Part shown: positions 2 to 63,850 of the stretch, piece after piece
How the letters are laid out: the number at the start of each line of letters is the position of its first letter
How positions within the stretch are numbered: position 1 is the first letter of the stretch
Virus record (IMG/VR): IMGVR_UViG_3300024500_000029
Length of the DNA: 64,000 bases
Direction: 5' to 3' (one strand)
Origin: an uncultured virus (IMG/VR IMGVR_UViG_3300024500_000029)
Lineage: Duplodnaviria > Heunggongvirae > Uroviricota > Caudoviricetes
Translations under genes and position numbers: made by a program
The notes under the pieces: generated by a model
What the model was told of the DNA's origin: nothing
Databases searched by the model: none
What the model saw: the letters and a program-made list of their open reading frames with translations, nothing else

Positions 2-1756
2 ACTACTGCCTATGTAGTTACACCTGGTGTAGAATCGGGCGGCGTAGTTACAACTCCTGCTAATATTACTTTTGATACTGGCGATCTTCCAGCTAACAGT
101 GACGTAATTAGTATTAGAATCTTTACAACAACTATTCGTAGAGAAATAACTAACCTAGGACCTACCCCAGGATATAGTGCAGAAGTAGCTCTACTGCAAA
201 GTAATAATGTAGCAATAACTGGTAATCTACTACCAAGTGCAAATGTAACCTACGATCTAGGTAGCAATACTGCACGTTGGAACGATTTGTATATGTCTGG
301 TACTACGATTTATCTAGGCAACATACAGTTGTCCAGCGCAGGTGGCGTATTAACTGTAACAGATAGTGCTAATAGCCCAGTTGCATCTAATGTATCCGCT
401 CTAAATGCTACTGGCAATATTACTACATCAGGCGGTTGGTTTATAGGTAACGGTGCTTTCCTAACAGGGCTACCAGCTGGATATACTAACTCCAATGTAG
501 CTGCCTACTTACCAACCTACACAGGCAACATTGCCGCTGGGAATGTAATAGTAACATCGGCAGTAATAGCGTCCACGGTTAATGCAGCCACAATTGGTAA
601 TACTGGTGCTATTATTACTGGTACTAATGTCACTGCTACCAGTACAATGACAGCAGCAACAGTTAATGCTAATACGATTGGTAACACAGGCGCCACAATC
701 ATTGCTGGTACTGTTAGCGCAGGTACAGTGGGTAACACAGGAACAACCTTGGTTGGTACCTTGACAACTGCTGCACAGCCCAATATTACAAGTGTGGGTA
801 ACCTAACTTCACTAGTTGTTAATGGACCAACAACACACGTTGGTAATATTGATATTACTGGTAACATTAATGTTTACAGTGGTAACCTAAATTATTCCAA
901 CGTTTCAAGCTTTGTGGTAGGTGATCCACTAGTTTACTTCGGAGACAATAATAACTCTAACAGTGTAGACCTAGGTTTTGTAGTTGGATACAATCCTGGA
1001 GTTTACCAACACGGTGGTTTTGTACGCGACGCAACTGATGGCGTTTGGAAGTTGTTTGGTAATGTCGTAGCAGAACCTACTACCACTGTAGACTTCACCA
1101 ATGCAATCTATCAACCCATACAGACTGGTGCGATTACTGCCAACGGTAATATCACTACAACAAGCAATGTTAGTGTTGGTAATCTATTATTAAGCGGTAA
1201 CATTATAGATACCGGCGCTCTAGGTATCAATTCTGGTGCAAATGGTAATATAACACTAAATGCAGGTACTGGAAGTGTCATCCTCAACAGCGGCGTGCTT
1301 AATGGCCAAGCTAATGGCGTTGGCAACATTGGTAGCAGTACTACATACTTCAACACAGTGTTTGCCAAGGCAACATCAGCACAATATGCTGACTTAGCAG
1401 AACATTATACAACCGATGCTGAGTACGAACCTGGCACAGTTGTTATGTTTGGTGGCGATAAGGAAGTTACAATTTGTGGCGAAGAAATGAGCCGTAGAAT
1501 TGCTGGTGTCGTATCCACCAATCCTGCTTACATTATGAATGCCGGCATCCTAGAAACTAGCGTGGCTGTGGCACTCCAAGGTCGAGTACCAACCAAGGTC
1601 AAAGGTCCAGTGCGCAAAGGTGATATGATGGTCAGTGCAGGGGATGGTTATGCAAGAGCCGAAGACGCTCCTGTACTTGGTAGCGTTATAGGTAAAGCAC
1701 TTGAAAACTTTGACGGAGACCTAGGCGTAATAGAAGTAGTAGTAGGTAGAATTTAA
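2..1756 (+). CDS. Tail fibre/spike-like virion protein, 5'-partial, with C-terminal intramolecular-chaperone (peptidase G2-like) domain
   Basis: Frame is open from base 2 through the listed ORF 287..1756. G/N/T-rich low-complexity repeats; C-terminal AQYADLAE...GVVSTNPAY...VALQGRVP...IGKALE pattern typical of fibre chaperone domains. Confidence 0.75.
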   Translation, partial: TTAYVVTPGVESGGVVTTPANITFDTGDLPANSDVISIRIFTTTIRREITNLGPTPGYSAEVALLQSNNVAITGNLLPSANVTYDLGSNTARWNDLYMSGTTIYLGNIQLSSAGGVLTVTDSANSPVASNVSALNATGNITTSGGWFIGNGAFLTGLPAGYTNSNVAAYLPTYTGNIAAGNVIVTSAVIASTVNAATIGNTGAIITGTNVTATSTMTAATVNANTIGNTGATIIAGTVSAGTVGNTGTTLVGTLTTAAQPNITSVGNLTSLVVNGPTTHVGNIDITGNINVYSGNLNYSNVSSFVVGDPLVYFGDNNNSNSVDLGFVVGYNPGVYQHGGFVRDATDGVWKLFGNVVAEPTTTVDFTNAIYQPIQTGAITANGNITTTSNVSVGNLLLSGNIIDTGALGINSGANGNITLNAGTGSVILNSGVLNGQANGVGNIGSSTTYFNTVFAKATSAQYADLAEHYTTDAEYEPGTVVMFGGDKEVTICGEEMSRRIAGVVSTNPAYIMNAGILETSVAVALQGRVPTKVKGPVRKGDMMVSAGDGYARAEDAPVLGSVIGKALENFDGDLGVIEVVVGRI

Positions 1757-10576: not shown

Positions 10577-13500
10577 ATGGCATTAGTGAGCCCTGGCGTA
10601 CAAGTACAAATTATTGATGAGAGCATTTATGCGCCCACAGCAGTTGGTACTGTACCTTACATACTTATCGCTACAGCAGAAAATAAAACACAACCTGGAA
10701 GTTCAGCACTAGCTGTTGGAACATTAGCAGAAAATGCAGACAAAGTTTATAATATAACCAGCCAAAGAGATCTAGTTACAACATTTGGTGCACCAAACTT
10801 TGAAAACATTGACAATGTTCCTGTCAACGGTAGCGAACTAAACGAATACGGCCTAATGGCTGCCTACAGCGCACTAGCAGTTTGCAACAGTGCCTACGTA
10901 CAAAGAGCAAATGTTGACCTAGCTAAGTTAGCAGGCAGCACTGCTAGACCCACAGACAATCCTGTCACAGGAACCTATTGGTTAGATACAGACGCTAGCA
11001 ATTATGGTATCTTTGAATGGAACGCAACTACACAGCGTTTTACAGAAAAACAAGTCCTTCGTATTTTTAGTGCTGTTGATACAACTACTAGTCCAGAGGA
11101 CGAGACAGTAAGTTTTTTAAGTGCTGATGTAATTGGTACAGTTCCAGCGTCTACTACTGGAGAAGTAGGTGATTATGCTGTAATGGAACTAGAAGAATAT
11201 CATCCTATTTTTTATAAAGCGTATGATGGCACGTGGGTATTAGTAGGAAGTCAAGGCTGGCAACAAAAAGTACCAACTGCGGCATTTACTTTTACTACAC
11301 CTGCATCTAGCGGCAATTTATTCATAAACGGTGATAGCGTAAGCATCACAGCCAACTCTAACATTAGTGTAGTTAATTCTGCAATTAATAGTGCAAGCAT
11401 AACTGGTGTTACTTCTAGAGTAAGCGGTTCTACTTTAATAGTTACAGCAACACAGGAAGCAGGATTTGGTGGCAATAGTGGAGTTTTAGTAATTAATCGC
11501 ACAGGTGGTTCAGTTACTAGCAACGCTATAATGACAATGTTAGGTTTACCTTTAAGTGCAACTAATATTACTTACCAAGCAGCAGTTACAGCCCAGGCTC
11601 CTTTCAATCAGGTCCCAAGATGGCAAACCACAGCTAATAACAAGCCCACTGGTAGTGTTTGGCAAAAAACAAGCACAAGTGGTGGTGGAGTAAGTATTAG
11701 TGTTAAAAGATATAACGAGCTTACCGAACAATGGCAAGCTCAAAATGTTACAAGTTGGATAGGCGTATTTGACGCTACTTACAATTTAGACAAAACAGGT
11801 GGTGGAAAAAATATCCCACAAGGAACTATATTTAATGCTTACAGTGCTTTAGATTCTAATGCAACAGAAGGCAACTTACCACGTCTAGGTGGTCAGCTTT
11901 TCCGCAGACGCCTAGCAGCTGGTGCTGCATTGACAGTTGCAAGCACAAATACCTATGCTAACACATCTGTTAACATTAGAACGGGCTTAGTTGCTACTAG
12001 CACATTTAGCCTAACATTTAGAGCATCACCTAGTGATACTAGTACTACTACTGTAAGTGGTAGTATAACTGGCAGTTCATTCACTGTTGCAGATTTTATC
12101 AATGCTGTTAATGCAGTTGGTAGTCAGGTGGTTTACGCTAGTTTCAACAGCGATGGAAAAATTGTAATTACACACAAAGATGGCGGCGATGTTCAGGTTG
12201 AAGATGGCACAAATCTTCCATTTACCTATGCAGGTTTTGGAACTGCTGCGGACGATACTTATCCATCTCTAGAGCTAGGAGACACATTTGCACTTACTGG
12301 ATGGACAGACCTTGCTTCTTACAATAATGGTGAAGGCTACAGTTCACAGGACACAGCACCCACAGTAGAACCAGCAAATAACACGCTTTGGTATAACGAC
12401 AGTGCAACTAGGGTGGACATCCTTGTCAAGGACGGTGCAGGTAACTGGAGAAATTATAGAGCCCTAGACGCAGATTATCGCGGTTACGATCTAACTGCTA
12501 CTGATCCAGAAGGACCAATTATAAGTGCAAGTGAGCCTAGCACACAAAGTGATGGTGAAACAGCACTTGCCTACGGTGATCTTTGGGTTGATACTGGTGA
12601 CCTCGACAACTTCCCAATGATTTATCGTTGGCAGATACAGGATGGCGCAGATCAGTGGGTACTAATAGACAAAACTGATAGCACAAGTCCAGCCGGTATT
12701 ATTTTTGCAGATGCACGTTGGGCAAGATATGGAAACGTTAACCCTGCAACTGGTGCCCTACCAACAATCGCAGATTTAAGCAGCGCAGCCTGGGAAACAA
12801 CTAATAGTAGCGGAGAAGACACTGCCTACCTAGATCTAGATGCACCTGATCCTGCACTCTATCCTGAAGGTATGCTACTGTTTAACACAAGAGCAAGTAG
12901 CTACGGTGTAAAACAATATCGTTCAAATTACTTTAGCCCAGCTAATTGGCCAGAAACGGCAGCAGATGCTGGAAGTGATATGAACACAGATCCAAATTGG
13001 CAGACTGGCGCCTGGGTAAATGTAAGTGGTGTGGATAGCCGTGGATTGCCTAATTTTGGTAGAAAAGCTCAACGTGGATTTGTAGTTGCTAAACTACAGG
13101 CAGCAATTGATGCAAGTGATGGACTACGTGAAGAATCAAATATCTTTAATATTATCTGCTGCCCAGGTTATCCTGAGCTATTAGATAATATGGTAGCTCT
13201 TAATACAGACAGAGAAGAAACAGCTTTTGTTATTGGTGACGTTCCATTACGTTTACCAGCAACTGGAACAGCTATCCAGGCCTGGGCCACAAACACCAAT
13301 AGTTATGATGTTGTTGGTGAAGCAGGACTTACAGTAGCAAGTCCCTACGCTGCTGTCTATTTCCCACACGCTCAGACTAATGACTTATCTGGAAATGAAA
13401 TCGTTGTACCAGCAAGTCACGTAGCTCTACGTAATATGATCAAGAGTGATAATCAGAGCTATCCTTGGTTCGCTCCAGCAGGTACACGTCGTGGACTAGT

Positions 13501-13996
13501 AGACAATGCTAGTGCAATTGGTTACATTGACAGTGTGACAGGAAGATTTGTAAGTGTTGGTGTAACGCAGGGACTAAGAGATGTTATGTACAATAACAAA
13601 GTTAATCCATTGTCTGTATTACCAGGCGCTGGTTTGATGGTTTATGGACAAAAAACTCTCAACCCAAATGCAAGTTCACTGGATCGTATCAATGTTGCAC
13701 GTCTAGTTAACTATGTTCGCAGACAATTAACTATTGCTACAAGACCGTTCATTTTTGAACCAAACGACACTATTACACGTAATAGTGTACAAACAGTTGT
13801 TAGTGGATTCCTAGTTGATCTAGTAGCTAAACGAGGCATTTATGATTTCCTAGTAGTTTGTGACGATAGTAACAATACTGCTAGCAGAATAGCAAACAAT
13901 GAACTATGGGTAGATGTAGCTATACAGCCTATTAAAGCTGTTGAGTTTATCTACATTCCAATTAGATTAAAGAACCCAGGAGACCTAGAGGTATAA
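10577..13996 (+). CDS. Contractile tail sheath protein (T4 gp18-like) with large internal insertion
   Basis: N-terminal MALVSPGVQVQIIDES; C-terminal PWFAPAGTRRG, YGQKTL, LDRINVARL, FEPND and FLVVCDDSNNT motifs. Confidence 0.95.
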   Translation: MALVSPGVQVQIIDESIYAPTAVGTVPYILIATAENKTQPGSSALAVGTLAENADKVYNITSQRDLVTTFGAPNFENIDNVPVNGSELNEYGLMAAYSALAVCNSAYVQRANVDLAKLAGSTARPTDNPVTGTYWLDTDASNYGIFEWNATTQRFTEKQVLRIFSAVDTTTSPEDETVSFLSADVIGTVPASTTGEVGDYAVMELEEYHPIFYKAYDGTWVLVGSQGWQQKVPTAAFTFTTPASSGNLFINGDSVSITANSNISVVNSAINSASITGVTSRVSGSTLIVTATQEAGFGGNSGVLVINRTGGSVTSNAIMTMLGLPLSATNITYQAAVTAQAPFNQVPRWQTTANNKPTGSVWQKTSTSGGGVSISVKRYNELTEQWQAQNVTSWIGVFDATYNLDKTGGGKNIPQGTIFNAYSALDSNATEGNLPRLGGQLFRRRLAAGAALTVASTNTYANTSVNIRTGLVATSTFSLTFRASPSDTSTTTVSGSITGSSFTVADFINAVNAVGSQVVYASFNSDGKIVITHKDGGDVQVEDGTNLPFTYAGFGTAADDTYPSLELGDTFALTGWTDLASYNNGEGYSSQDTAPTVEPANNTLWYNDSATRVDILVKDGAGNWRNYRALDADYRGYDLTATDPEGPIISASEPSTQSDGETALAYGDLWVDTGDLDNFPMIYRWQIQDGADQWVLIDKTDSTSPAGIIFADARWARYGNVNPATGALPTIADLSSAAWETTNSSGEDTAYLDLDAPDPALYPEGMLLFNTRASSYGVKQYRSNYFSPANWPETAADAGSDMNTDPNWQTGAWVNVSGVDSRGLPNFGRKAQRGFVVAKLQAAIDASDGLREESNIFNIICCPGYPELLDNMVALNTDREETAFVIGDVPLRLPATGTAIQAWATNTNSYDVVGEAGLTVASPYAAVYFPHAQTNDLSGNEIVVPASHVALRNMIKSDNQSYPWFAPAGTRRGLVDNASAIGYIDSVTGRFVSVGVTQGLRDVMYNNKVNPLSVLPGAGLMVYGQKTLNPNASSLDRINVARLVNYVRRQLTIATRPFIFEPNDTITRNSVQTVVSGFLVDLVAKRGIYDFLVVCDDSNNTASRIANNELWVDVAIQPIKAVEFIYIPIRLKNPGDLEV

Positions 13997-37065: not shown

Positions 37066-37227
37066 TTATAGCCAGCATCTTTCCTGGCTATAATTCCATT
37101 GTTTAATTAAATGTTCTACATCAGCCGCATTTTTAGGATTATTGCGAGCTATAAAAGCCTCGATTTCTGTGTGCGGCCCGGATCTCAGCCATTTCGTTAA
37201 ATTATCTAGTGTATTTTTGATTGACAT
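37066..37227 (-). CDS. Small hypothetical protein (53 aa)
   Basis: Read manually: MSIKNTLDNLTKWLRSGPHTEIEAFIARNNPKNAADVEHLIKQWNYSQERCWL; TAAATA upstream on the minus strand. Confidence 0.45.
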   Translation of the reverse strand: MSIKNTLDNLTKWLRSGPHTEIEAFIARNNPKNAADVEHLIKQWNYSQERCWL

Positions 37228-39843: not shown

Positions 39844-40419
39844 ATGACAATCGAAAATTGGTTTAGTGTACCTGTTCTGTATTACGATTTGTCAGAGGAA
39901 GAATTTGAAAAAGTTCAGGATTCAATACAACTAGCTATGCCCAAGATTCTCGAATTAGATCTTGGAAATCCCTGGGGTGATTCAGTAGAAACTTCATTTA
40001 AGTACAAAACTGATTGTAACTTAATAGAAGATTTGGGGCTAGAAGTTTTGAAAACAGTTATAATGGATCAGGCAACTTTATTTTGCCAGTCCTATGATTT
40101 AAATTACACATTAAGGCTTAAAGAAAGCTGGGTGAATATTTCTAAAAAACAAGGGTTCCAATACCCTCATAATCACCTTCCTTTTTTGTTTTCTGGTGTA
40201 TATTTTTATCAGACTAATGGAGAAGATGGCTCATTGCAGTTTAAGAGCCCCAATCCCTGGTTAAATGCAATGACATATCCTTTTGGCTACGATAAAGTAA
40301 CCTATCGTCCTATTGAGGGTAGATTGATAATGTTTCCAGCATATTTGGAGCATCTAGTTAATCTAAATAATACTGCATCTACTAGGATATCTTTATCCTT
40401 TAATATAGAATGTAATTAA
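39844..40419 (+). CDS. 2OG-Fe(II) oxygenase (TIGR02466-like)
   Basis: SWVN, HNH, SGVYF, FPAYLEH and RISLSFN motifs. Confidence 0.8.
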   Translation: MTIENWFSVPVLYYDLSEEEFEKVQDSIQLAMPKILELDLGNPWGDSVETSFKYKTDCNLIEDLGLEVLKTVIMDQATLFCQSYDLNYTLRLKESWVNISKKQGFQYPHNHLPFLFSGVYFYQTNGEDGSLQFKSPNPWLNAMTYPFGYDKVTYRPIEGRLIMFPAYLEHLVNLNNTASTRISLSFNIECN

Positions 40420-40424
40420 ATTAT

Positions 40425-40499
40425 CTGGCGTTCGTTCAACGGATAGGACAACAGTCTTCTAAACTGTGAATGGGGGTTCGATTCCCTCACGCCGGACCA
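40425..40499 (+). tRNA. tRNA-Arg(TCT)
   Basis: Cloverleaf with CTTCTAA loop and CCA. Confidence 0.9.
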
Positions 40500-40505
40500 T
40501 ACACA

Positions 40506-41051
40506 ATGTTACTAACTAATTTGCTGGATTTACCCACTGCAATTTATATAGAAAATAAACTAGGGGATGATTATTTTCCTTGGTATTGGAACGAAAATAC
40601 ACTCACAGATCAAGAAGTGAGCAGTTTAAAAAATTTTCAGTTTACACATAATTTTTATATCAACGGAGCAATTAATTCAACCTATGCACGTATGCTAGAT
40701 CCCATACTTGCAAGTATTGAAAGCAAAGCAGATATAAAAATAAAAAATATTTTCAGGGCAAAAGCTAATTTGTTAACTAATATGCAAATGTCCGAGCAGG
40801 AGCTAGCTAACGAAATACATACTGATCACGATTCTACTGACTATAGAAGTTTTGTTTATTATGTTTCCACTAGCGATGGCGACACTATAATATATGATGA
40901 GAATGAAACAATTTTAGAACAGGCAAGTCCTGTGTTTAATAGTGGTATATTGTTTCCCTCTAGGTTACAGCACAGAGGAACACCACCCCTGCTGCACAAA
41001 AGACGCATAGTAATAAATTTTATATTGGAAATACAAAATGAACGAAACTGA
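40506..41051 (+). CDS. 2OG-Fe(II) oxygenase-like protein
   Basis: HTD, YYV..SDGDT and H...RIVINF motifs; start moved past the tRNA to the ATG at 40506. Confidence 0.75.
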   Translation: MLLTNLLDLPTAIYIENKLGDDYFPWYWNENTLTDQEVSSLKNFQFTHNFYINGAINSTYARMLDPILASIESKADIKIKNIFRAKANLLTNMQMSEQELANEIHTDHDSTDYRSFVYYVSTSDGDTIIYDENETILEQASPVFNSGILFPSRLQHRGTPPLLHKRRIVINFILEIQNERN

Positions 41052-41310
41052 TAGAGAAATACTTGTAATCACCCAGGAAGAATGCGCTGAAGTCATACAG
41101 GAAATCAGCAAGTGTTTTCGTTTTGGTATAGATAAATTACACAAAAGTGGGCTTCCGCACAGACAGGTTTTAACCCAGGAAGTGGGAGATCTAATGTGTA
41201 TGCTACAGTTAATGATGGAGCATAATATTGTAGACTCCCAGGAAGTAGAAGTTGCTAGACTAGCAAAATTGCAAAAATTGCAAGTTTTTTCAAATATTTT
41301 TAAAAAGTAG
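41038..41310 (+). CDS. MazG-like NTP pyrophosphohydrolase
   Basis: EECAEV...EVGD motif. Confidence 0.75.
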   Translation: MNETDREILVITQEECAEVIQEISKCFRFGIDKLHKSGLPHRQVLTQEVGDLMCMLQLMMEHNIVDSQEVEVARLAKLQKLQVFSNIFKK

Positions 41311-41339
41311 TTGACAAAAAGACTAAATAAATTTACAAT
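41311..41339 (+). promoter_or_regulatory. Sigma70-type promoter of the attenuator leader
   Basis: TTGACA-17 bp-TACAAT, with a TAAATA inside the spacer. Confidence 0.8.
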
Positions 41340-41348
41340 ACGACAATT

Positions 41349-41471
41349 ATGAAAACTAACCTACAACACTTGTTTATATCAAAACCCTGCTCAGTGCAGC
41401 CAGCTGGCTATTGGGTTGCGATTACACGCGAGATTAGTAATCTAGACCAGGGGCTTTGTAGAGTCTTATAA
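41349..41471 (+). CDS. Putative attenuator leader peptide (40 aa, contains all 20 amino acids)
   Basis: MKTNLQHLFISKPCSVQPAGYWVAITREISNLDQGLCRVL; ATG 9 nt after the -10 box (near-leaderless); last codons overlap the antiterminator arm. Confidence 0.7.
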   Translation: MKTNLQHLFISKPCSVQPAGYWVAITREISNLDQGLCRVL

Positions 41472-41529
41472 TTGTAATTAAATAGAATTCTACAAAACCC
41501 CAGGACTCGAAACCCTGGGGTTTTTGTTT
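41447..41529 (+). terminator. Attenuator: mutually exclusive antiterminator and intrinsic terminator
   Basis: 41450-41462 GGGGCTTTGTAGA pairs with 41489-41501 TCTACAAAACCCC (12/13). Terminator AAAACCCCAGG(41494-41504)/CCTGGGGTTTT(41514-41524) shares that arm. Confidence 0.8.
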
Positions 41530-41543
41530 ATATAAAGGGAGAA

Positions 41544-41708
41544 ATGACAACTGAACAGGAAATTCTGTCGTTTCAAAAAAAGTTAGAAGAACGTAATTTT
41601 GTTTTTAACGATCGATTGCTTGAACAATTGTTTAAAGAAAAAATGGAACGTTTGCGCAGGCAAACAGAACTTAATCAAGAATTACGTCGGCTAATAAAGA
41701 GGCGATAA
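41544..41708 (+). CDS. Small basic helical protein (54 aa), Arg-rich C-terminus
   Basis: AAGGGAG RBS; MTTEQEILSFQKKLEERNFVFNDRLLEQLFKEKMERLRRQTELNQELRRLIKRR. Confidence 0.6.
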   Translation: MTTEQEILSFQKKLEERNFVFNDRLLEQLFKEKMERLRRQTELNQELRRLIKRR

Positions 41709-41714
41709 AGCAGT

Positions 41715-41858
41715 AAAGTGCAATGTGGAACGAGGCCACTGCTCACTATAAAAAGCTAAACGGGCGGACAGTATATATGAAATCACGGCGAGAACGTTGA
41801 GAGTAAGACTACTGGTTGGGGTGTCGACCCCAACATAATGCGAGGTAACTCGCATTAT
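41715..41858 (+). ncRNA. Putative structured RNA downstream of the attenuator
   Basis: Successive stems GTGG/CCAC, CAGTA/TACTG, GTTGGGG/CCCCAAC and ATAATGCGAG/CTCGCATTAT; no convincing ORF. Confidence 0.5.
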
Positions 41859-41966
41859 TCTAAAGCACACTGGGCTAAGTACACGCCTATGCTCTGGACG
41901 CAGCCGGGCCGCCGTAAGGGGGCCTTTAAGGTGGACGGTTCGAATCCGTTAGTGTGTTTTAGAATA
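41856..41966 (+). ncRNA. Long-stem RNA cassette 1, contains a T-arm
   Basis: 17-bp closing stem TATTCTAAAGCACACTG/TAGTGTGTTTTAGAATA; internal GACGGTTCGAATCCGTT. Confidence 0.6.
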
Positions 41967-42020
41967 GTTCACCAAATATACTTTACAATTAGTGAGTTTG
42001 GCTATATACTAGAAAAATAC

Positions 42021-42115
42021 GGAGCGTTGGCCGAGTTGGTCGAAGGCACTTTCCTGCTAAGAAAGCATCTGGACAAAAATCTGGATCGTTGGTTCGAATC
42101 CAACACGCTCCGCCA
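42021..42115 (+). tRNA. tRNA-Ser(GCT)
   Basis: Cloverleaf with long variable arm, G73 and CCA. Confidence 0.92.
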
Positions 42116-44275: not shown

Positions 44276-44368
44276 ACTTGGGTAGTGTAACGGTAGCACG
44301 ACGAGATTTATAACCTCGATACGCTAGATGGGCGGTTAGAGAGGGTTCGAATCCCTCCCCAAGTACCA
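44276..44368 (+). tRNA. Atypical tRNA-Ile(TAT) with long variable region
   Basis: Acceptor ACTTGGG/CCCAAGT-A-CCA, TTTATAA loop, ~22-nt variable region. Confidence 0.7.
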
Positions 44369-47733: not shown

Positions 47734-48777
47734 ATGAAAACTAGACCATTGAAAAATTATGGTGCTAGTGTTGGACTTGAAGCTTATGATATTGATTGGA
47801 ACTCTCAAGAAGAAATTCTTGAACTAGGTCGTCTAGCAGCCAGTCAGTGTGTAGTAGTTGTCAATGAACACATTAGCACCGAGCAACTTTATAAAACTAT
47901 GATTAACTGGGGCGATGTAAGTCATCCCATTATAACTGACTATGTAAGTCGTAAACTATTAACAGGCAGTCACTGGCGCGAGCTAACACTTAATCTGCGC
48001 TATATAACAAGTGAAGTTCCTGAACTTAAATCCGTAGCACTAGTAAGTTACCTTAAAAAAGAAAAAGATAGACCACGCGGTTTATTTTCCAATGGAGAAC
48101 TTGACTGGCACAGTGATCAATGCGCTATAGACGACGGACAACGAGTTATTGGTCTTCAAAGTATAAGTGATACAGCAAACAGCCAGACACAATTTTTATG
48201 CACACACGATGCCTACGAGTCATTAAGCTCGGATATGCGTAGTATGATCAAGGAATTGGTCTGTAAGCACCGTTGGTATGAGGGACTTATGGCACCTGGC
48301 TTAAACAGGGCTCAGTCAATGATGCTTAGATATAATATGGTACCCATTGACGGACTTGAAACAAACTTATATTCAGAAACTGCCAGCGGCTTAACTGGAA
48401 TAAAAATTCCTAGTCATACCTTTGATGGATTTGTGGGTATGAGCCGTGAAGAAAGTATTAAATTACTAGATGAAATTAAATCAGTAGTCTACAACGATCG
48501 TTACGTGCATACACAAGACTGGCAGGATGGGCAGATTGTGTTTATGGACCAAGAGATTACTCTACACAAACGACCAACTAATGTAAAAGACGGTGATCGT
48601 CGTACAATGGCACGTAGTATTACCTATGTTAACTATTTGTACCCTGACAGCGCATACGCCATAAGAAGATCAACTTACAAATATCAAGGTTCAGTTTATA
48701 CTGAAGAAGATTTTGTAAAATTAGTTGATCAAGACCGTCGCACACAATATGAACAAGAATTGGAGTTTGCAGAATGA
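47734..48777 (+). CDS. TauD/TfdA-family 2OG dioxygenase
   Basis: WHSD and WQDGQIVFMDQ...LHKR motifs. Confidence 0.85.
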   Translation: MKTRPLKNYGASVGLEAYDIDWNSQEEILELGRLAASQCVVVVNEHISTEQLYKTMINWGDVSHPIITDYVSRKLLTGSHWRELTLNLRYITSEVPELKSVALVSYLKKEKDRPRGLFSNGELDWHSDQCAIDDGQRVIGLQSISDTANSQTQFLCTHDAYESLSSDMRSMIKELVCKHRWYEGLMAPGLNRAQSMMLRYNMVPIDGLETNLYSETASGLTGIKIPSHTFDGFVGMSREESIKLLDEIKSVVYNDRYVHTQDWQDGQIVFMDQEITLHKRPTNVKDGDRRTMARSITYVNYLYPDSAYAIRRSTYKYQGSVYTEEDFVKLVDQDRRTQYEQELEFAE

Positions 48778-49832
48778 AAATAAGACCATTAAAAAATTAC
48801 CAGGGTAGCATAGGTGTAGAAGTCTATGACATAGACCTCACACAGGACGATGAAATATTTGAGCTTGGTAAGCTAGTAGCAGATCAATGTGTGGTATTCA
48901 TTGATCAGGGAGTACCAACACAACGGTTATACGATGTAATGACTCAGTGGGGAAGTCCTAGTCGAGCTCTAATCCATAACTACATAGTAAGTCAGAGACT
49001 AAGTGGACGCCATTGGCGTGATTTATTCCTACAATTAGGTTACATCAATAATGGTATGGGTGAACTTGCTGGCGCAGTTAGTCGTGTTAGCTACCTAAAA
49101 GATGATCGAGGCCGGCCTAAAGGAATTTTTAGTAACGGAGAATTAGATTGGCACAGTGATCAGTGTGCATTTGATGATGCACCTCGTATGATTGGCCTAA
49201 TGAGTGTGAGCGACAGTGCAGGTAGTCAGACACAGTTTATGCCCACACACGATCAATTTATGTCCTTGAGTTCAGATATGCAAAGTATGGTAAAAGAACT
49301 TGTAGTGCGTCATAAATGGCGTGAAGGGGAAGAAGGATGTGCCCCGGGACTAAATCGTGAACAGACTATGATTATTCATTATAACGGTGTGCCACTAGAC
49401 GGAATGGAAACAAAGTTATACAGCGAAACAGTCACTGGACGCCCGGGGGTAAAATTCCCTCACTTTGATTTTGATGGGTTTGTGGGAATGAGCCAGGAAG
49501 AAAGCTGGCGCCTTTACCGTGAATTAAAGAAACATTTTTATGATGATCGTTATGTCTACACGCAGGATTGGCAGGATGGACAGATTGTGTTTATGGATCA
49601 AGAGATCACTCTACACAAGCGACCAACAAATATTCTAGATGGCGACAAAAGGATGATGCATAGGGTAATAACTTATCTTAATAAAATTAATCCCAACATT
49701 CAACCAGCGCAGACTGTCCGATATCGTGGTGAGATTTACACTCACGATGAATTTGCAAAATTAGTTGATGCAGACCGTCGCAGACAATATGAACAGGAAC
49801 TTGATGAACAAGCAAGACTCCAACCATATTAA
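48774..49832 (+). CDS. TauD/TfdA-family 2OG dioxygenase, tandem paralogue
   Basis: Same motifs; long identical stretches with the previous ORF (FSNGELDWHSDQCA, TQDWQDGQIVFMDQEITLHKRPTN). Confidence 0.85.
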   Translation: MKIRPLKNYQGSIGVEVYDIDLTQDDEIFELGKLVADQCVVFIDQGVPTQRLYDVMTQWGSPSRALIHNYIVSQRLSGRHWRDLFLQLGYINNGMGELAGAVSRVSYLKDDRGRPKGIFSNGELDWHSDQCAFDDAPRMIGLMSVSDSAGSQTQFMPTHDQFMSLSSDMQSMVKELVVRHKWREGEEGCAPGLNREQTMIIHYNGVPLDGMETKLYSETVTGRPGVKFPHFDFDGFVGMSQEESWRLYRELKKHFYDDRYVYTQDWQDGQIVFMDQEITLHKRPTNILDGDKRMMHRVITYLNKINPNIQPAQTVRYRGEIYTHDEFAKLVDADRRRQYEQELDEQARLQPY

Positions 49833-53374: not shown

Positions 53375-54258
53375 TAGGGAGTTTAATCTCTTGTTAGGCG
53401 GTTCGCCGTCTAACTAAGGATAAGTGGCGTGAGTCACCCAAAGCAGAATCCTCCTACAGGACTGCGCCAGAGATGGTCCAGTTAAACAAGCCTGCTCACT
53501 ACCGCGAGGTAGCGATCACTGATAAGACCGGTGGTTGTAACAATGAAGCTGGTGTAGTGGAAAGAACTTGTATCGACTAGCCCGCAAGGGAACTAGGGTG
53601 CAAGGAAAGTAACAGGTGGTGCTGACTTCACTACAAAACCAACCAGTTAGTTGGTATGAGAAAGGGTAGTGCATTTGTCCAAGGTTTCGCAGCCAAGGGC
53701 TTGTGTGCAGTATGAATGGTACTTGGGGCTGCTGTGAGGCGTCACAAGAATCGTGAAATACTACTGAGTAGCCGGCAGGCGAAAGGTACGTGGTGTGTTG
53801 TATCGTGTATTCCAAAAGAGTATGCGGCAACTGGAGCAGCACATCATAGTAGGTTGATATAGCTCATTGGTAGAGCAACAGTCCTTTTAAACTGTAGGCA
53901 GTTGGTTCAAATCCAACTATCATTAAACAAAAACGCAAAGACTGCTCCGGTTGTATGTGAAAAGCATCTAACACTTAGGGCGTAAGCTAACTAAGTTCAG
54001 TCTAACCCGCAAGGTGAAACTGATTTGTACTAGAAGATTCGTAGCTCGCAAGGCTTAATGGACCGCAAGTTCAACGGGTAATAAGGTACAGAGTAGCATA
54101 CAATGACAAGACTACTGCCTGTCTTTAAACGGCGATGCTGCAAGCAGACTGGATCACATAGCGATATGGATCTTGTGGATGTCGTGGAGAAGATTGGCTC
54201 GCAAGGCTGACTATAATACCCGAGGTGCTTGTAGTTAAGATGTAATCTCAGTCTTAAC
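53375..54258 (+). ncRNA. Giant structured RNA, GOLLD-like (~885 nt), with embedded tRNA-like module
   Basis: Own promoter TTGACA(53339)-17-TAATAT; no credible ORF; many GNRA (GCAA/GCGA/GTAA) hairpins; long-range GGAGCAG/CTGCTCC pairing; terminal GTTAAGA...TCTTAAC hairpin; tRNA-array context. Family name from recall, not a model hit. Confidence 0.7.
53853..53925 (+). other. tRNA-Lys-like module inside the giant RNA
   Basis: Canonical D and T arms; 8-nt anticodon loop CCTTTTAA; weak acceptor stem; no CCA. Confidence 0.7.
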
Positions 54259-54864: not shown

Positions 54865-54941
54865 GCACCGTTAGACATCTGGTTGAGGTCACCACCCTTT
54901 CAAGGTGGCTAGAGCGGGTTCGAATCCCCTACGGTGTACCA
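54865..54941 (+). tRNA. tRNA-Glu(TTC)
   Basis: Cloverleaf with CCA. Confidence 0.88.
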
Positions 54942-55052
54942 AGATGCACAGTGTCGCTTTACGCTGTGGCAGGACGGCCTCTGTATCCTAGGACTCAAGC
55001 CTCTCAGACTGCAACTAGAGTTCTCGCAAAAGAACATAGCAAGATTTAGATT

Positions 55053-63775: not shown

Positions 63776-63850
63776 ACTTCGGTGGCAGAATGGTTGATGC
63801 TCCCATCTCTAAAATGGGCTAAATGGGTTCGAATCCCATCCGAAGTACCA
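63776..63850 (+). tRNA. Amber suppressor-type tRNA (anticodon CTA)
   Basis: ACTTCGG/CCGAAGT acceptor, CCCAT-CTCTAAA-ATGGG anticodon arm, canonical T arm, A73, CCA. Confidence 0.85.

Follow-up and report, generated by a model that had tools for sequence, protein, structure and literature searches.

Why should a short open reading frame (ORF) that lies between a promoter and a terminator, ahead of the tRNA genes of a phage, encode every one of the 20 amino acids? The question is raised by positions 41311–41529 of a 64,000-nucleotide (nt) stretch of DNA from an uncultured virus (IMG/VR record IMGVR_UViG_3300024500_000029), which we call the window. A preliminary description of this sequence had read the ORF as the leader of an attenuator, the translation of which would report the loss of almost any charged tRNA. 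The comparison of the element with its relatives in metagenomes supports that interpretation at the level of sequence. In our view, the element is probably a ribosome-mediated transcription attenuator; it would poll the aminoacyl-tRNA pool as a whole and control a small conserved ORF together with the start of a tRNA array. The leader ORF is then best read as a panel of codons and not as a run of one codon. This reading draws on comparative evidence, namely an open frame, selection for complete coverage of amino acids and codon classes, two mutually exclusive helices that co-vary, and a position before tRNA genes. From it we infer the translation of the ORF, the activity of the terminator, the direction of the switch and its physiological trigger.

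Organisation of the element in the window

The element comprises the following predicted features.

41311–41339, plus strand: sigma-70-type promoter, with TTGACA, a 17-nt spacer with TAAATAAA, and TACAAT.
41349–41471, plus strand: 40-codon leader ORF, MKTNLQHLFISKPCSVQPAGYWVAITREISNLDQGLCRVL, with a TAA stop at 41469–41471.
41362–41439, plus strand: branched hairpin inside the ORF (codons ~5–31), found in the minimum free energy (MFE) structure of the truncated transcript.
41441–41510, plus strand: antiterminator hairpin, with codons 31–40 as its 5' arm, the stop codon in its apical part, and a 3' arm that includes CCCCAGG.
41492–41529, plus strand: intrinsic terminator, with stem AAAACCCCAGG / CCTGGGGTTTT, a 9-nt loop and a U-run.

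The promoter agrees with the consensus at 11 of 12 positions and is the top sigma-70 match within 38–48 kb; its TAAATAAA-TACAAT form has a single occurrence in the window at 0 mismatches. The leader ATG stands at 41349, 9 nt past the −10 box and without a Shine-Dalgarno sequence, i.e., it is of the leaderless type. The 40 codons hold all 20 amino acids and 35 distinct codons, with 19 amino acids within the first 28 codons and Asp at codon 33. The preliminary description had given this same promoter, start and codon content, together with nine pairs of isoacceptor codons, all of which are present in the leader, and its account stands on each of these points.

To describe codons by how they are read, we used 32 decoding classes of our own grouping, in which codon boxes are split into pyrimidine- and purine-ending halves and ATA, ATG and TGG are kept separate. 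The window leader contains 30 of them. Of the 25 classes served by a phage-encoded tRNA, it includes 24 (gene windows: mean 15.8, maximum 22, n = 3883), and, by hand count, it includes 6 of the 7 without such a tRNA. The idea that the leader codons match the phage-encoded tRNAs only was rejected because the remaining classes are covered too. A promoter-like site (TAGACC-18-TATAAT, 10/12) is also found inside the leader at 41443–41472, where its −10 box overlaps the stop codon.

The composition of a single leader is not beyond chance. All 20 amino acids occur in 63 of 11,717 40-residue windows of the long ORFs of this phage (0.54%), which is the control that had been proposed for the claim, and in 3 of the 70 ATG-initiated ORFs of 35–55 amino acids (aa) in the window, so the case has to rest on relatives of the element. 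Two short ORFs other than the leader that have all 20 amino acids lie on the minus strand at 37066–37227 and 54909–55037, the latter antisense to tRNA-Glu.

Known families gave no match to the element. Rfam returned nothing above threshold for 41311–41529 (gathering cut-offs, E up to 10), the best scores being 26.8 bits for the SpF11 sRNA (cut-off 54) and 18–19 bits for His_leader (cut-off 49), and it gave no T-box at E up to 10 in 41000–42100. Neither Pfam nor PHROGs matched the leader ORF.

Most relatives of the leader encode all 20 amino acids

The 54-aa ORF downstream of the terminator led to eight related loci, in which the promoter, the ATG, the ORF and the terminator are all kept. Among the nine leaders including that of the window, 6 have 20 amino acids and 3 have 19, and the −35 box, TAAATAAA and the −10 box are kept in all nine. 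A scan of IMG/VR for the terminator motif gave at least 120 loci, which together with the window amount to 99 unique DNAs. We excluded eight of them: in five, an unrelated gene precedes the shared terminator, and three elements are truncated by a contig end. The 91 unique leaders that remain average 45 codons and come from uncultured jumbo-phage contigs. Counts out of 91 refer to this set. A promoter-like site of the form TTGACN-16..18-TANNNT lies within 160 nt upstream in 82 of the 91. The ATG is conserved; the start is of the leaderless type in 33/91 leaders and is preceded by a Shine-Dalgarno-like site in 44/91.

All 20 amino acids are encoded by 71 of the 91 leaders, compared with 2.9 (standard deviation 1.7, maximum 10, 2000 trials) for length-matched random peptides generated from the pooled composition of the leaders themselves, and with 0.5–2.7% of gene windows of this phage. 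The leader frame is open in 91/91 and the other two frames in 0 and 1 of 91; these two carry 3.5–4.1 stops on average and have all 20 amino acids in 0 and 1 of the 91 leaders. Clustering at 50% identity gives 29 clusters, and when one random member is taken per cluster 16.3 of the 29 are complete. Completeness extends to the part of the leader that precedes the switch: the codons wholly upstream of the antiterminator arm (mean 36) are by themselves complete in 54 of 85 leaders and miss no more than one amino acid in 73, and gene windows matching these lengths would give 0.28 complete cases out of 85.

A second set, ascertained by a 16-nt coding motif, contributed 56 further unique leaders, of which 50 have all 20 amino acids and 6 have 19. 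When the two sets are combined, 121 of the 147 unique leaders (91 + 56) encode all 20, against nulls of about 0.5–3%. The family is also visible in protein data: when cluster representatives, 1.84 billion in number, were searched with a profile built from 83 leaders, 166 of them matched at E 0.001 or better. Among the best 150 of these 166, 145 are no longer than 90 aa, and these 145 include 103 with all 20 amino acids and 34 with 19. Only 2 of these protein-cluster representatives are identical to leaders of the first set. The clusters are unnamed or labelled 'hypothetical protein' in their source databases.

Deposited genomes were searched in several ways. A 1.1-kb blastn query matched nothing in deposited phage genomes except a tRNA-Ser gene, tblastn with a leader and with a downstream ORF gave no match in deposited phages, and a six-frame profile search of Phosso, Atu_ph07, PAC2 and CBB produced one spurious match, inside a 793-aa frame. 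At the sensitivity used, the element was not found in 50,697 deposited phage genomes. In 185,579 prokaryote genomes, where the terminator motif alone was sought, there were 7 matches (6 Nostocales and 1 Chthonomonas), none with the ORF, which identifies them as unrelated terminators. A near-identical terminator hairpin, AAAACCCCAGGACTGGGAATCCCTGGGGTTT, occurs without the leader ORF in six filamentous cyanobacterial genomes (L138-L141, L143 and L144 in our numbering of loci); the likeness of the Nostocales hairpins could be a coincidence or a hint of the host.

Coverage of codon classes is kept while the peptide drifts

The rare residues show how the composition is maintained. Cys is missing from 7.7% of the leaders (32% expected), is single in 73%, and is found in 31 different alignment columns. 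His is missing from 3.3% (31% expected) and occupies 17 columns, and Trp is single in 90% of the leaders. It is as though each of these residues had to be present exactly once, at whatever position of the peptide. The same trend is observed among independent representatives, where Cys is present in 87% (37% expected) and Cys, His and Val are found together in 80% (20% expected).

The coverage goes beyond amino acids. On average, the leaders contain 28.1 of the 32 decoding classes and 34.5 distinct codons, compared with 21.7 classes (maximum 29) and 28.0 codons in 46-codon gene windows of the phage. If the peptides are held fixed and their synonymous codons are redrawn, from the phage gene usage or from the leaders' own pooled usage, 25.9–26.2 classes are obtained; taking one leader per 50%-identity cluster, 23–24 of the 29 lie above the redraw expectation (t about 5–6). 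Of the classes that their peptides would permit, the leaders use 94.6%. Where an amino acid that has more than one class is present exactly two times, its two codons belong to different classes in 220 of 264 cases, against an expectation of 133; the figures are, for example, 33/35 for Ala, 50/55 for Pro and 46/50 for Arg. Both boxes are present in 96% of the leaders for serine, 86% for leucine and 77% for arginine, and ATA is accompanied by ATY in 85%. Since the GC content of the leaders equals that of their flanks, base composition does not explain this spread. A function of the peptide would not predict it, and a function exercised through decoding would.

Single-base codon changes between related leaders are synonymous in 34% of cases, against 23% for random changes, and dN/dS is about 0.6. 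Together with a near-even distribution of substitutions over codon positions 1/2/3 (0.33/0.32/0.36), this implies that the frame and the composition are kept much more strongly than the peptide sequence. The check proposed for homologous loci, that codon diversity and the hairpin pair should persist while the peptide drifts, thus came out as anticipated: the frame, the complete amino-acid content, the diversity of codon classes and the antiterminator/terminator pair are all kept.

One strand is shared by two exclusive helices

The preliminary description had noted that the end of the window leader could pair with a strong terminator, and both parts of this claim are borne out. Positions 41450–41462 (GGGGCTTTGTAGA) pair at 12 of 13 positions with 41489–41501, which overlap the 5' arm of the terminator. 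The latter (41492–41527 plus the U-run) has a predicted energy of −17.9 kcal/mol (z −4.3); a consensus terminator scan missed it because its loop has 9 nt and the limit of the scan was 8. With the 3' arm of the terminator omitted, the antiterminator at 41441–41510 folds at −22.7 kcal/mol (z −4.6), and 0 of 200 shuffles are as good. The terminator and antiterminator states are close in energy. RNAalifold gives the window's group of 6 sequences a structure similar to the branched hairpin at 41362–41439, which could act as a pause or synchronising structure.

The same geometry recurs in the family. In folds without the 3' arm of the terminator, a G-run inside the ORF pairs with the terminator 5' arm in 85 of the 91 leaders, and the resulting hairpin encloses the stop codon; in 85/91 folds no upstream structure competes for the arm. 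The distance from the start of the arm to the stop is mostly 8–9 codons, and that from the stop to the terminator is 22–34 nt. Arms fold better with their own partner than with those swapped in from other clusters in 83 of 83 cases (−22.2 vs −16.3 kcal/mol). In a plain MAFFT alignment (A3), 81% of cells are paired, against 19–61% when the partner is slid, and the number of cells altered on both sides is 52, compared with 25.5 in shuffles (0/500 reach the observed value).

As the first set had been chosen by its terminator, the shared strand could not vary in it, a limit that the set ascertained by the coding motif removes: just 34 of the 99 elements in it have the terminator motif that defined the first set. 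Ten members were set aside, nine of them judged by eye to be unrelated sequence without the switch and the tenth being L170. In the 89 elements left, where the shared strand has C, the in-ORF arm has G opposite in 36 of 36 cases; where it has T, the opposite base is A in 46 elements and G in 4, and 3 elements offer no partner, so that C/T is matched by G/A in 82 of 89. On the other side, the terminator 3' arm has A in 26 and a tolerated G in 27, and the terminator stem varies and co-varies. Co-variation of one strand with two alternative partners is what marks a switch, as opposed to a hairpin that stands by chance before a terminator. The terminator, the activity of which is predicted, is present in all family members with co-varying variants.

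This organisation agrees with the trp/his attenuator geometry that had been claimed for the window. Four structural traits of such attenuators are found: a short ORF, predicted to be translated, between the promoter and the regulated genes; a predicted intrinsic terminator between this ORF and the downstream genes; a predicted antiterminator that excludes the terminator by using its 5' arm; and an ORF that ends where a terminating ribosome would mask the antiterminator, its stop codon lying inside the hairpin. A fifth trait, the run of regulatory codons, is absent. Each amino acid occurs about once (variance/mean 0.1–0.6 for all 20), which makes the leader the opposite of the classical ones devoted to a single amino acid, as the preliminary description had put it.

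Downstream genes and genomic setting

Three features separate the terminator from the body of the tRNA array, or open it.

41535–41708, plus strand: Shine-Dalgarno sequence (AAGGGAG) and 54-aa ORF (41544–41708), the first gene after read-through.
41864–41957, plus strand: tRNA-like cloverleaf between the small ORF and the first tRNA gene (fold of −35.5 kcal/mol).
42021–42115, plus strand: tRNA-Ser(GCT), the first of 26 downstream tRNA genes, with its own promoter-like site at 41982–42010.

The 54-aa ORF is 65–82% identical in the 8 relatives, and an ORF of 45–70 aa begins no more than 30 nt past the terminator in 51 of 86 loci. The link between the ORF of the window and those of the other loci is at the level of profiles only (profile-profile probability 73%, E 3e-5): BLASTP gave no match between it and the 60-aa ORF of a relative. 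Pfam and PHROGs had no match for it.

The RNA at 41864–41957 has a 7-bp acceptor-like stem, an extra arm capped by a GNRA loop and a canonical GGTTCGAATCC T-loop; it has neither a canonical anticodon arm nor an encoded CCA, and it is not called by ARAGORN or Rfam. It may be part of the regulated unit, given its position. The idea that it is a degraded tRNA-Tyr found no support, the T-loop alone aligning with the tRNA-Tyr of relatives.

Among the 61 loci with enough flanking sequence, 53 have a tRNA gene on the same strand within 700 nt downstream (median 408 nt), and none has one on the opposite strand in this interval; upstream tRNA genes are found in 10 of 64. The commonest first gene after the switch is tRNA-Tyr (16 of the 53 loci). 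This position before tRNA genes fits the attenuator interpretation of the preliminary description.

The source of the window is an uncultured jumbo myovirus. It encodes a tail tube protein and a tail sheath (10577–13996), which is 35–47% identical to the sheaths of Phosso, Atu_ph07, PA5oct-like phages, CBB and GAP32. ARAGORN finds 29 tRNA genes in the window, between 39.6 and 63.8 kb. An 88-kb IMG/VR record (G001) is identical over the region and indicates that the end of the tRNA array coincides with that of the window. DNA of the window is present in river metagenomes and in river RNA libraries.

Several other observations concern the array. No tRNA-Phe or tRNA-Tyr is called by ARAGORN among the 29 tRNA genes of the window (39599–63850). 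The last gene (63776–63850) is a tRNA with anticodon CTA, which ARAGORN labels Pyl and which is of the amber-suppressor type; the stop codon of the leaders, for comparison, is TAA in 76/91 and TAG in 15/91. The tRNA-Ile(TAT) genes, at 44276–44368 in the window and in L028, L032, L065 and L079, have 93–95 nt, far above the usual length, which suggests an insert or a long extra arm. A full-length GOLLD RNA (Rfam RF02032, 214 bits) lies at 53790–54254, and embedded in it is a tRNA-like gene (53853–53925) that ARAGORN cannot assign. Interleaved with the tRNA genes are three genes for 2OG-Fe(II)/TauD-type dioxygenases, an endonuclease V-like gene and a MazG-like pyrophosphohydrolase gene (coordinates 39844–40419, 47734–49832, 40470–41051 and 41038–41310).

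A proposed mechanism and its limits

The steps that we propose are drawn from the geometry of the element and from the established behaviour of attenuators of the trp/his type. The promoter is followed by an ORF of ~40–50 codons, which is of the leaderless type in the window but has a Shine-Dalgarno sequence before it in many relatives. All amino acids and nearly all tRNA decoding classes are represented in this ORF about once each. The 5' half of a hairpin takes in its stop and its last 8–9 codons, and at the hairpin base GGGG(UCC) pairs with (GGA)CCCC, the 5' arm of the terminator. A ribosome that finishes the ORF in step with the RNA polymerase would occupy the antiterminator arm, so that the terminator forms and transcription stops. 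If the ribosome were delayed at any codon by a missing, uncharged or cleaved tRNA, or if it were absent, the antiterminator would form first and transcription would read through to the small ORF and the first tRNA genes. The failing tRNA might result from starvation, from host shut-off or from defence systems that cleave tRNAs. Since no upstream structure competes for the arm, untranslated transcripts should read through, unlike those of trp. With a single codon per class, the design would be better suited to detecting that a tRNA is lost outright, or to gauging how fast decoding proceeds overall, than to sensing graded starvation for one amino acid. A bolder version of this model is a 'pangram' leader that polls the whole pool, turns on the tRNA array and the small protein when any single tRNA fails, and turns the array down once decoding is restored; we find the considerations for and against this version to be evenly balanced.

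A number of observations weigh against the attenuator model or narrow its reach. The members of the family share ancestry, so that the counts above are not independent and overstate the number of independent events, and 20 of the 91 leaders lack one amino acid or more. The near-even substitutions over codon positions are a weak coding signature. The core AKQxGFMPxYWxxI..LSNDRTPE, common in the largest groups, accounts by itself for some 17 of the 20 residue types; in the window's group and in several others, which are still complete, most of it has been replaced. Within it, the 16-nt stretch TGATCGYACACCAGAG, which encodes DRTPE and is predicted to be single-stranded directly upstream of the antiterminator arm, is kept even at third codon positions in leaders of the main group (e.g., L022 and L053). 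The conserved core and the conservation of this stretch at the nucleotide level make it likely that constraints other than coverage are at work.

Other points concern the function of the switch. Because each amino acid occurs about once, where the classical leaders have runs of codons, a low sensitivity to partial starvation is expected. The sensing of some residues is doubtful: in 44 of 85 leaders Glu occurs nowhere but in the last 4 codons before the arm or beyond them, and Asp in the window (codon 33) lies on the arm. This caveat had been raised for Asp in the preliminary description and applies likewise to Glu in many relatives. The MFE structure of the full-length window transcript contains the terminator, and the antiterminator would therefore have to win kinetically, by forming first. 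Contigs from RNA libraries cover the locus; in 3 of 4 runs they extend across the terminator, and one run has a contig that ends inside it. These contigs start at 41184–41300, upstream of the predicted transcript start, may represent carried-over DNA and cannot show transcript ends; nor can a meaning be read into their gaps at 41886–42017 or into the contig ends near the terminator in one run. The array also has consensus promoter-like matches at 41982, 42881, 52632 and 53339, as the preliminary description had cautioned, which means that only its proximal part need depend on the switch, and 8 of the 61 loci have no tRNA within 700 nt.

The same RNA switch might read the general capacity for translation (ribosome availability, elongation speed or the coupling of transcription and translation) and not individual tRNAs, the presence of all codons being merely that of an unbiased sample of the average message. 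The geometry, which predicts read-through in the absence of any ribosome (no competing structure in 85/91 folds), is compatible with this, one codon per amino acid fits an integrated measure of speed better than a single-tRNA threshold, and in the window leader the classes with a phage tRNA (24/25) and those without (6/7) are covered about equally. An unbiased sample would, however, follow the codon usage of the phage, whereas rare codons (e.g., GCG, TCG and ACG) are enriched in the leaders, the favoured NNT codons are avoided, and class coverage is near its attainable maximum (94.6%). Enriched rare codons and near-maximal coverage fit a rule by which no class may be missing, and we give this capacity-based account a small, though real, chance of being correct.

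It could also be that there is no sensor at all: the locus would then be a conventional gene that encodes a small functional protein between a promoter and a terminator of its own, the hairpin would simply belong to the 3' end, and the composition would be that of the peptide. The peptide does have a conserved core with a nearly invariant W and C-terminal G, 166 of its clusters are called as proteins in public data, and synonymous changes are somewhat enriched. A peptide function leaves unexplained the spread of synonymous codons over decoding classes, the single Cys and His that shift position, and the co-variation of the in-ORF arm with the strand used by the terminator; moreover, the peptide has no Pfam or PHROG family and its dN/dS is about 0.6. 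We hold this explanation to be improbable. Least of all do we favour a structured non-coding RNA (a small RNA, or a riboswitch-like leader that binds a ligand, a protein or a tRNA) in which the ORF is incidental. The strong conserved structure, the nucleotide-level conservation that includes third codon positions and the weak codon periodicity would all be natural for such an RNA. It would hardly account for a frame open in 91/91 next to frames with 3.5–4.1 stops on average, for an ATG conserved along with a leaderless promoter or a Shine-Dalgarno sequence, or for an all-20 content specific to the leader frame, and the element has no Rfam family at threshold and no T-box match; this explanation is very improbable. 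The attenuator that polls the aminoacyl-tRNA pool thus remains our preferred reading.

Significance and comparison with known systems

Each of the known attenuators and T-boxes is, to our knowledge, a reporter of a single amino acid or tRNA, or of a few at the most. If our reading is right, a single leader that reports on all of them would constitute a new sensing logic. In the part of the literature that our search reached, we found no description of an all-amino-acid leader or of a cis-regulatory sensor of phage tRNA arrays, and within that scope the element would be the first cis-regulatory mechanism proposed for large phage tRNA arrays. Such arrays are regarded as a supply of tRNAs or as a counter-defence against tRNA loss. 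The present element lies in a jumbo phage with 29 tRNA genes and would tie the expression of the array to tRNA shortage and thus to decoding failure, which bears on the debate between codon supply and escape from tRNA-targeting defence. The leader family accounts for at least 166 clusters of unnamed 'hypothetical proteins' of ~45 aa in metagenomes. It also provides a criterion in the search for analogues, namely complete codon coverage in a short ORF whose end falls within an antiterminator, and it might be turned into a tool, as a compact natural reporter of global decoding capacity.

Three types of known systems can be compared with the element. T-box riboswitches are alike in being leaders with a terminator and an antiterminator for which the state of tRNA is the signal. 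They bind one specific uncharged tRNA directly and without translation, whereas the phage leader has a conserved ORF that would sample all classes by decoding. In the leaders of ermC (ermCL) and catA86 and in tnaC, the progress of a ribosome on a short leader ORF likewise remodels the downstream RNA or termination. These require a specific nascent peptide together with a drug or free tryptophan; in contrast, the phage peptide drifts while its composition is kept.

The closest parallels are the leader-peptide attenuators of the enterobacterial amino-acid operons (trpL, hisL, leuL, pheL, thrL and ilvL). Attenuators of the trpL/hisL type share with the element a short ORF between promoter and terminator, an antiterminator and a terminator that use one common strand, and an ORF end at or in the antiterminator, such that a ribosome that finishes leads to termination and one that stalls upstream leads to read-through, as predicted for the phage. 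They differ in that they have an anti-antiterminator (the 1:2 hairpin), which the phage element does not, and in that they regulate biosynthetic enzymes, where the phage element precedes a small ORF and tRNA genes. Most importantly, their leaders contain runs of codons for one to three amino acids of the operon, whereas each amino acid occurs about once in the phage leader, with its synonymous codons spread over the decoding classes. It is by this absence of a codon run that the leader departs from the known leader-peptide attenuators, and this is what makes the element new.

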